Part shown: positions 60,919 to 62,616 of the stretch, one piece after another
How positions within the stretch are numbered: position 1 is the first letter of the stretch
Layout: every line of letters starts with the position of its first letter
Notes under the pieces: model-generated
What the model was told of the DNA's origin: nothing
Databases searched by the model: none
What the model saw: only the letters and a program-made list of their open reading frames with translations
Position numbers and translations under genes: made by a program
NCBI RefSeq assembly: GCF_044324875.1
Contig: NZ_CP172185.1
Length of the DNA: 64,000 nucleotides
Direction: 5' to 3' (one strand)
From: Escherichia coli
GTDB lineage: Bacteria; Pseudomonadota; Gammaproteobacteria; Enterobacterales; Enterobacteriaceae

Positions 60919-62616
60919 TTACGCAGAAGTACGCATCAAACCAATAGTATTAAATTCATTTTTCACACTGAGCAAACGGGGGTCATGAAGCAAAACATTT
61001 GACCATAAATCATTCTCTTTAATTAATTGTTGCCAGCGCTTTTCATATTCTTTCTTACCATAAACAGTGTAAATTAACGGCAAAATTACACCATTGATTT
61101 TGTTAGTGTTAATATTTGCCAGTAACTTCATAATGTCATTTTTTATAGATGCGCCATAGATCAGAAACTTCGTATAAAGCGAGTTAACACAGGTGTAATC
61201 AAGACCATGTTCAGGCTCAAGTTTAAGCAATAAACTTTTGGCTTTGTCATTATGTCCTTTCAGTGCCATGAACATAGCCAGAATAGAGGTAATAATTGGA
61301 TTATTACAGGTGTTTTGACTGTTAAGATTTAATGCAAAAGATATCGCGTTATCGAGGGGGGATGTGTAATAAAGTATAATTAATTTAAGAATGCTTATGC
61401 CCATTTTATTGGGTTCAAGAGCAATGCTTTTTTCTATTAAATTAAATGCTCTTGCTAGGTCACCGTTCAAAAAACATAGCAGAGACTGATAATAATAAAC
61501 GTCTGGCGAATTAGGTTTGAGTAAATGTGCTTGCTTAAATAGCACATTAGACACTGAATGTTCATCTTTTAGCCCACTGATTAAACCCAGTAAACCCAAT
61601 GCCTGAGAATTTGAAGGGTTAATTTCAAGAGCCTTTTCAATGGAGGTTACTGCCGTAGTTATTGCTTGTTTTTGTTCACTGAGTCCAAGGAGGGCTAATG
61701 ATATATGGCATTCCGCCAGGCAACAGTAGGGTAAGGTATTTTGCGGTTGCGTACTCACACAATCTCTAAATATTACTAATGCTCGTTTCAAACTCTCTGG
61801 TGTATAACGATACATTTCCATTCTGCCATTCATATACATAACAGCAGAATCCAGAGATGGCATTTGTTGTGTATTAATAGATTTAAAATTAATATTGGGT
61901 ATTTTTTCAATAAGAATATTAATTACTTGTGATAATAATACGGAAAGAGGATTATCGGGGTTGAAATCAATACTTTGATGATCAATCAATTTATGTGTTC
62001 TGGCATGAATTAACTCAATAAATAAACGCCAGTTTTTACCATAGTGAACGACCTGACCCATAATATAATATTCTGGACCTGTTTTATTTATAAACTGATG
62101 GATAGTGGAAAAATCACTGGCCTCATTTGTTACCGAAGCTGGTAAAATATCTAAACCACAAAAAGCATATTTTGAAAGGCCCTGGACAAGTTCGTAATGG
62201 AGTTTTAGAACATTGATCGAACCTTCAGTACGAAAGGGAAAAACGGCAAGAGTAGTGGTCGACTTTACCGGTTCATTATCGGTCACAATCACAATAGGTA
62301 CAGTAAAACGGTATCCACGACCATAGACCGTTTCGATATACTTACACTGTTTATTCTCATGCAAAAGTTTGCGCAATGCATAAATACATCGTGTTAGAGA
62401 TTCATCACTGGCAACACTCGCGCTCCAGACCTTATCGATAATCTCTTCTTTGCTAACAATTTCACCGTCAGCATTAAGCAATAGAATAATAACGCCAAGT
62501 TCTTTCGGGGGAATATGATATTCTTTGTTTTTGAATAATAATATTCCATTGTTTTTTAATACAAAGTCGCCAAATATATATTGTTGTGTATTATTTTTTC
62601 CATGTTGCAGTTGCAT
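60919..62616 (-). CDS. eilA: HilA-family transcriptional regulator (OmpR/ToxR-type winged helix plus TPR-like region; 565 aa)
   Basis: Collinear with Salmonella HilA as recalled: ...IPPKE..V.ILLL.A.GEIVSK..., ESLTRCIYALR, YIET.YG.GYRF, LAEC..S.A..G, PQALGLLGLI, LLFKQA.LL.P, DPRL. Very AT-rich. Confidence 0.88.
   Translation of the reverse strand: MQLQHGKNNTQQYIFGDFVLKNNGILLFKNKEYHIPPKELGVIILLLNADGEIVSKEEIIDKVWSASVASDESLTRCIYALRKLLHENKQCKYIETVYGRGYRFTVPIVIVTDNEPVKSTTTLAVFPFRTEGSINVLKLHYELVQGLSKYAFCGLDILPASVTNEASDFSTIHQFINKTGPEYYIMGQVVHYGKNWRLFIELIHARTHKLIDHQSIDFNPDNPLSVLLSQVINILIEKIPNINFKSINTQQMPSLDSAVMYMNGRMEMYRYTPESLKRALVIFRDCVSTQPQNTLPYCCLAECHISLALLGLSEQKQAITTAVTSIEKALEINPSNSQALGLLGLISGLKDEHSVSNVLFKQAHLLKPNSPDVYYYQSLLCFLNGDLARAFNLIEKSIALEPNKMGISILKLIILYYTSPLDNAISFALNLNSQNTCNNPIITSILAMFMALKGHNDKAKSLLLKLEPEHGLDYTCVNSLYTKFLIYGASIKNDIMKLLANINTNKINGVILPLIYTVYGKKEYEKRWQQLIKENDLWSNVLLHDPRLLSVKNEFNTIGLMRTSA

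Follow-up and report, generated by a model that had tools for sequence, protein, structure and literature searches.

The window analysed here is a stretch of 64,000 nucleotides from the Escherichia coli contig NZ_CP172185.1. Close to its right-hand end, on the minus strand between positions 60919 and 62616, lies an open reading frame that begins with ATG, stops at TAA and encodes a protein of 565 amino acids. The open reading frame list, NCBIfam and a match in strain 042 together designate it as eilA, the gene of a transcriptional regulator of the HilA/EilA family. The gene is AT-rich: its GC content is 34.9% (29.7% for GC3), while the window as a whole stands at 51.4% and the adhesin gene that lies beside it at 55.3%. 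An earlier sequence-only reading of this DNA had given the coordinates, the length of the product and the AT-richness of the gene, all correctly, as checked against the open reading frame list and a GC count. It had also described the product as collinear with Salmonella HilA. This is upheld by NF009037, the HilA/EilA equivalog model of NCBIfam, for which the protein scored 953.8 bits with a cutoff set at 589. The alignment to the model ran from end to end, residues 1-552 corresponding to model positions 2-553 of 553.

That reading had gone on to regard the gene as a HilA homolog that was unidentified or out of place, a view that turned out to be wrong. The EilA protein of enteroaggregative E. 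coli 042 (EC042_RS21315, WP_001176839.1), reportedly described by Sheikh et al. in 2006 (Mol Microbiol 61:338), also counts 565 residues. The alignment with EilA that had been suggested as a check revealed near-identity, 562 of 565 positions (99.5%) being the same, and the gene occupies the canonical position of the eip island (see below). At the nucleotide level the two genes are 98.4% identical. The three substitutions in the protein, N9T, N503S and L560V, all fall outside the winged helix, and the codon differences comprise 24 synonymous and 3 non-synonymous changes, a ratio that follows the pattern expected of purifying selection. A megablast search of 5426 complete E. coli genomes found a full-length copy of eilA in 730 of them. 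All matches listed carried the annotation "HilA family transcriptional regulator EilA", a name that RefSeq assigns automatically, and the best was 99.6% identical to the gene of the window. The set contained 731 matches in total, one of them on a record classed as plasmid, and one genome carried two copies. Judged by its sequence, the gene of the window is thus eilA, the already characterised EilA itself and a paralog distinct from YgeH.

Upstream of eilA, at 62819-64000 on the minus strand, lies the 3' part of eipD, a needle-tip gene of the SipD/IpaD family which is cut by the end of the window and is 96.8% identical to its counterpart in 042, where the gene measures 1350 nt. The visible part matched TIGR02553 (SipD_IpaD_SspD) with an E-value of 1.4e-39 and 136.5 bits; this score is under the curated cutoff of 219 because the reading frame is truncated by the window end. 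The adjacency of a tip gene links eilA genetically to type III secretion genes of the SPI-1 type. On the other side, eilA faces an open reading frame on the plus strand (50611-60867) that encodes a giant inverse-autotransporter adhesin of 3418 amino acids, which confirms the convergence with a giant adhesin gene that had been noticed earlier. This gene is known as air, eaeX or iatC, according to NCBIfam NF040978 and to the RefSeq naming of the 042 gene, "inverse autotransporter adhesin EaeX/Air". The N-terminal 796 amino acids scored 1916 bits with NF040978, the IatC N-terminal model; this is lower than the cutoff of 2400 since only 796 of the 1065 model positions were queried. The adhesin is 3418 amino acids long here versus 3806 in 042, a difference attributable to the number of Ig-like repeats. 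In the window the gene is a single open reading frame with many tandem Ig-like repeats of 291 bp (97 amino acids), and in strain 2012C-4221 it is annotated as three fragments. A series of minus-strand reading frames of 79-95 amino acids between 55200 and 58739 is a by-product of these repeats.

Beyond the adhesin gene, at about 49225-50409 on the plus strand, lies nepI (formerly called yicM), the backbone gene at the border of the eip island, as identified by gene order and by 98.8% identity to nepI of 042. The window thus contains eipD, eilA, air on the opposite strand and nepI in the order found in both 042 and 2012C-4221. In these two strains the full arrangement reads selC, a rhuM remnant, setC, yicL, nlpA, yicS, the island and nepI. 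The island itself comprises genes for a SycD-type chaperone, a small open reading frame, a translocon subunit, a hypothetical gene, the IpaD/SipD tip protein, eilA and, on the opposite strand, air/iatC. A complete eicA-eipB-eipC-eipD set precedes eilA in these syntenic records. The window therefore corresponds to the right-hand part of the eip island arrangement, and the DNA between its genes is 96-99.5% identical to that of 042 and 2012C-4221. The six-gene eip locus has been published as lying between nlpA and yicM (PMC11068852) and adjoins selC (PMC7058095, PMC2808357), so that a location on the nepI side is canonical for eilA.

These data bear on the claim that the gene sits next to nepI rather than in ETT2. 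The second half of this claim holds, the gene being outside ETT2. The first half does not apply to the gene itself: it is the adhesin gene that adjoins nepI, which lies 10.5 kb away from eilA, and the island taken as a unit that borders on it. Neither is the position unusual, as had been proposed, since it is the normal chromosomal place of eilA, with the same order of genes in 042 and 2012C-4221. E. coli has two paralogs of HilA: on the 042 chromosome, YgeH is encoded in ETT2 near 3.25 Mb, and EilA near 4.26 Mb, within the eip island.

Several further features were observed in the surrounding DNA. Two small overlapping reading frames on the minus strand (48331-48997), between yicN and nepI, occupy the position at which a RelE/ParE-family toxin and an HTH antitoxin are annotated in 042 and 2012C-4221. 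An eip-like island of E. albertii (positions 11748-17756 of locus L006) has a shorter adhesin of 1763 amino acids, and nepI is missing there between the adhesin gene and yicN. For the backbone from ilvB to nepI (33000-50600), the highest identity to any of the 5426 complete E. coli genomes was 98.6%, indicating that the lineage of the strain is without a close representative in this set. An AT-rich islet (35.6% GC) lies at 36134-39159, between ilvN and uhpA, and contains two reading frames of 435 and 500 amino acids (36134-37441 and 37657-39159, from the open reading frame list). Strain 042 has a homologous islet in the same place, which at 86% identity is more diverged than the backbone. Neither of the two islet proteins found a match in PADLOC, NCBIfam or Pfam.

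The finding of a HilA family member outside ETT2 could be explained if the ETT2 gene ygeH had been relocated or duplicated, or if the gene were a novel paralog of HilA at an atypical site. EilA does align with YgeH, over residues 14-446 and with an E-value of 1.6e-67. However, with NF008870, the YgeH equivalog model, it reached only 228.5 bits for a cutoff of 800, while passing the HilA/EilA model; YgeH of 042 is only 34% identical to it and lacks the C-terminal 110 residues or so; and the position between yicS and nepI is where publications put the eip locus, and is found again in 730 complete genomes. We consider this explanation refuted, its residual probability being negligible. YgeH has itself been reported to complement a Salmonella hilA mutant, as EilA does (PMC4210603).

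We next considered the domain structure of the protein. The sequence-only reading had proposed an N-terminal winged helix of the OmpR/ToxR type followed by a TPR-like C-terminal part, and both are supported by Pfam, the TPR matches being weak. The winged helix-turn-helix region comprises residues 31-104 (62305-62526, minus strand), which match Trans_reg_C (PF00486) over model positions 2-77 of 77 with an E-value of 8e-16. Among solved structures, its best match was the DNA-binding domain of CadC (5ju7, E = 3e-10), after which the N-terminal part of EilA matched the winged helices of response regulators and of ToxR. The TPR-like region extends over residues 312-425 approximately (61342-61683, minus strand). 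There, Pfam TPR and ANAPC3 matches had E-values of 0.005-0.009, and designed consensus-TPR proteins aligned to residues 320-405.

Family members were compared in an alignment of nine proteins: EilA of the window and of 042, YgeH of 042, and homologs from E. albertii, a divergent E. coli lineage, Yersinia enterocolitica, E. fergusonii and two Chromobacterium species. Salmonella HilA did not appear among the named matches of the protein search, and the comparison made use of the NCBIfam model and of these other family members. Identity to EilA of the window was 77% for E. albertii, 57% for the divergent E. coli lineage, 53% for Y. enterocolitica, 50% for E. fergusonii, 36-38% for the two Chromobacterium species and 34% for YgeH of 042. 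A lack of conservation in the DNA-binding winged helix had been named as an outcome that would speak against a HilA homolog. The winged helix is conserved, three blocks being invariant in all nine members: PPKEL (residues 36-40), ESLTRC.Y.LR (72-82) and I.T.Y..GYR (94-103).

Two other classes of winged-helix regulator were rejected. EilA cannot be assigned to the OmpR/PhoB two-component response regulators: no receiver domain (Response_reg) was detected by Pfam, and the winged helix is N-terminal. Nor is it a membrane-bound activator like ToxR or CadC, as the CadC model gave 50 bits for a cutoff of 400 and matched the winged helix only. No membrane segment was predicted either, since the Kyte-Doolittle maximum over 19 residues reached just 1.42. 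The protein is consequently predicted to be cytoplasmic. Together, the absence of a receiver domain and of a membrane-spanning stretch led us to infer that EilA would be a soluble activator, controlled mainly by the amount made.

The non-coding DNA on both sides of eilA was then inspected. The region between eipD and eilA (62617-62818, minus strand, 33.7% GC) is the probable location of the eilA promoter. It is 96.5% identical to that of 042 and 99.5% identical to that of strain 2012C-4221, and contains a ribosome-binding site, GGAAGGAG, at 62623-62630, 6 nt ahead of the eilA start codon. A scan for sigma-70 promoters upstream of eilA gave no enrichment (13 found, 9.9 expected from shuffled sequences), and no promoter is named here. 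An upstream eilA fragment of about 500 bp, taken from strain CE10, drove a reporter that was induced in LB:DMEM (PMC7058095). Just past the eipD stop codon, at 62765-62787 on the minus strand, lies a hairpin with a 9-bp stem, six G-C pairs and a weak T-tail. This is a consensus match only, and a possible terminator separating eipD from eilA. On the other side, the stop codons of air and eilA are separated by a spacer of 51 bp, of which 49 bases match 042. The spacer harbours a perfect palindromic hairpin with a 13-bp stem (60880-60909), found by the hairpin scan and conserved in 042, that is probably a bidirectional terminator shared by the two convergent genes.

The genes controlled by EilA have been studied in strain 042, where the protein raises the transcription of eicA, eipB, eipC and eipD, the chaperone and translocator genes beside it, of air/eaeX and of the ETT2 genes eivF and eivA (PMC4210603, PMC7058095, PMC11068852). 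The dependence of air on EilA is reported in PMC4210603 and PMC7058095. Adherence to epithelial cells and biofilm formation are reduced in both eilA and air mutants of 042 (PMC4210603, PMC7058095, PMC11068852). The adhesin and the translocator genes, which the sequence-only reading had put forward as targets, are thus published targets of EilA, as shown for the 042 allele (PMC4210603, PMC7058095). Expression of eilA is poor in LB and induced in LB:DMEM (PMC4210603, PMC7058095, PMC11068852). When supplied from a plasmid to a Salmonella hilA mutant, EilA of 042 restored invF transcription and SipA secretion (PMC4210603). The similarity between EilA and HilA is given as only about 37% (PMC4210603). 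The gene, its island, their location and the main targets are therefore already known: they were published between 2004 and 2006, and revisited in 2014, 2020 and 2024. As the gene is now identified as eilA, it need no longer be flagged as an anomaly.

One may ask whether this intact gene is functional in the present strain, or whether it is a vestige that has outlived a decayed ETT2 and controls few genes or none, like the non-functional YgeH of O157:H7. Most E. coli strains have a decayed ETT2, and the O157 version of YgeH fails to complement a hilA mutant (PMC4210603, PMC11068852). The ETT2 region is located outside the window, and without an intact ETT2 the regulon of EilA would be largely vestigial. 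In ST69 strains, the transcripts of eilA and of the genes co-regulated with it were barely detectable, qPCR giving values at the limit of detection (PMC7058095). Against this, the gene is full length, and differs from the functional 042 protein by three conservative changes only, alongside the synonymous ones that point to purifying selection. The neighbouring air reading frame, with its 3418 codons, and the visible part of eipD are also open. Moreover, the eip locus has been reported to co-occur with an intact ETT2 (PMC7058095, PMC11068852). We therefore regard a vestigial eilA as unlikely. In this strain eilA and air are both intact, and of eipD at least the 3' part is open.

The upstream regions of published EilA targets were then compared. 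The pattern TCATCA-N8-TCATG was derived by eye from three sites: the one upstream of air in the window, and those of eprH (the prgH homolog) and eivF (the invF homolog) in ETT2 of 042. In the window, the candidate HilA/EilA box, TCATCATTTGCTAATCATG, is located at 50525-50543 on the plus strand, 68 bp ahead of the ATG of air. A second copy of the motif, with a spacer of seven nucleotides (TCATCA-N7-TCATG), adjoins it at 50546-50563 on the same strand. Exact matches to TCATCA-N8-TCATG were found twice in the 64-kb window, for 0.02 expected; the other one (46973-46991) is within the coding region of adeQ and is probably due to chance. In the 49-kb ETT2 locus of 042, exact matches occurred only at the eprH and eivF promoters. 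Since the pattern was built from the air, eprH and eivF sites, its presence at these sites alone does not constitute a test.

A test is provided by two loci that had not contributed to its derivation. In Y. enterocolitica, the sole exact match in 21.7 kb was situated 81 nt upstream of prgH. In Chromobacterium violaceum, the sole match allowing up to one mismatch in 21.7 kb was situated 85 nt upstream of the invF homolog, with one mismatch. The distance between the motif and the start codon was 70-87 nt at all sites. In E. albertii, the adhesin gene is preceded, at the corresponding position, by a version with two mismatches. No exact motif was found in the eip island of E. albertii or in the E. 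fergusonii locus; in the latter, where prgH is disrupted, the motif was absent upstream of this gene. In Y. enterocolitica, a motif with one mismatch was also observed (positions 12999-13017 of locus L008) about 100 nt upstream of a gene for a LuxR/GerE-type regulator beside the HilA-like gene, which hints that this regulator gene may be a further target of the HilA family.

The motif was not found everywhere. Upstream of eicA in 042 it was absent even when two mismatches were allowed. It was also absent upstream of eilA, so that autoregulation of eilA through such a box is not supported, and the regions upstream of eilA and of 042 eicA contained only the related sequence TTCATCACA. Near the islet at 36-39 kb, whose genes had been listed as possible targets, no candidate box was detected at one mismatch or less. 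Nothing linked the islet to EilA, and its control by EilA is not supported. On balance, the chances appear about even that TCATCA-N8-TCATG is a direct recognition site of EilA and, more widely, of the HilA family, and it may simply be the Salmonella HilA box that is already published. If the candidate were right, EilA would directly control the adhesin Air as well as the secretion apparatus, and the eip translocator operon would be controlled indirectly through EivF. In any case, a concrete candidate site for EilA binding upstream of the adhesin gene is now available.

These observations can be assembled into a tentative mechanism. The AT-rich eilA gene would probably be silenced by H-NS and induced in tissue-culture-like medium; such silencing is plausible by analogy with ygeH (PMC4210603). 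Once made, EilA would use its N-terminal winged helix to bind a bipartite site some 70-90 bp ahead of the start codons of its targets, the candidate being the TCATCA-N8-TCATG that precedes air, eprH and eivF. The operon of the eip genes, devoid of this motif, would then be activated indirectly via the InvF homolog EivF, by analogy with the Salmonella cascade from HilA to InvF and on to sic/sip (PMC4210603). The lack of a site upstream of eicA is in keeping with this indirect route.

EilA might instead act mainly as an anti-silencer, which would displace H-NS from the AT-rich promoters of the island and not, like a classical activator, recruit RNA polymerase by way of a single specific box. The GC content of eilA and of its intergenic regions, 34-39%, is consistent with such a role, and HilA has been reported to counteract silencing by H-NS/Hha at the prgH and invF promoters. 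Repression by H-NS is described for the paralog ygeH and for further genes of ETT2 (PMC4210603, PMC11068852). However, the motif argues for sequence-specific binding and against pure anti-silencing: it is discrete, bipartite and conserved in E. coli, Yersinia and Chromobacterium alike, with a constant spacing to the start codon. We thus view anti-silencing as the main activity of EilA as possible, though rather doubtful; the two activities are compatible. Taking all the evidence together, we are highly confident in the best explanation: the gene is eilA, it encodes the HilA-like transcriptional activator that belongs to the eip island of E. coli (selC-B being another name for the island), and this protein would act as proposed above.

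Comparison with known regulators places EilA as follows. With ToxR and CadC it shares the N-terminal winged helix, the CadC domain 5ju7 being the best structural match and ToxR matching as well, but unlike them it has neither a transmembrane segment nor a periplasmic sensor domain. YgeH resembles EilA in its architecture, a winged helix-turn-helix with a partial TPR region, and in the conservation of the DNA-binding blocks. It differs by its length of 458 amino acids, by the lack of the C-terminal part, by its separate NCBIfam equivalog and by its location in the glyU-linked ETT2 locus. The input from HilD, HilC and RtsA that is known for hilA in Salmonella has no evident counterpart for eilA here. 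The two genes also differ in their surroundings, hilA being located within SPI-1 beside the genes of the secretion apparatus, whereas eilA belongs to a small island of its own, over 1 Mb away from ETT2. The proteins themselves are alike in architecture: HilA of Salmonella SPI-1 and EilA fall into a common NCBIfam equivalog, and both are built from an N-terminal winged helix, a central region and a TPR-like C-terminal part.
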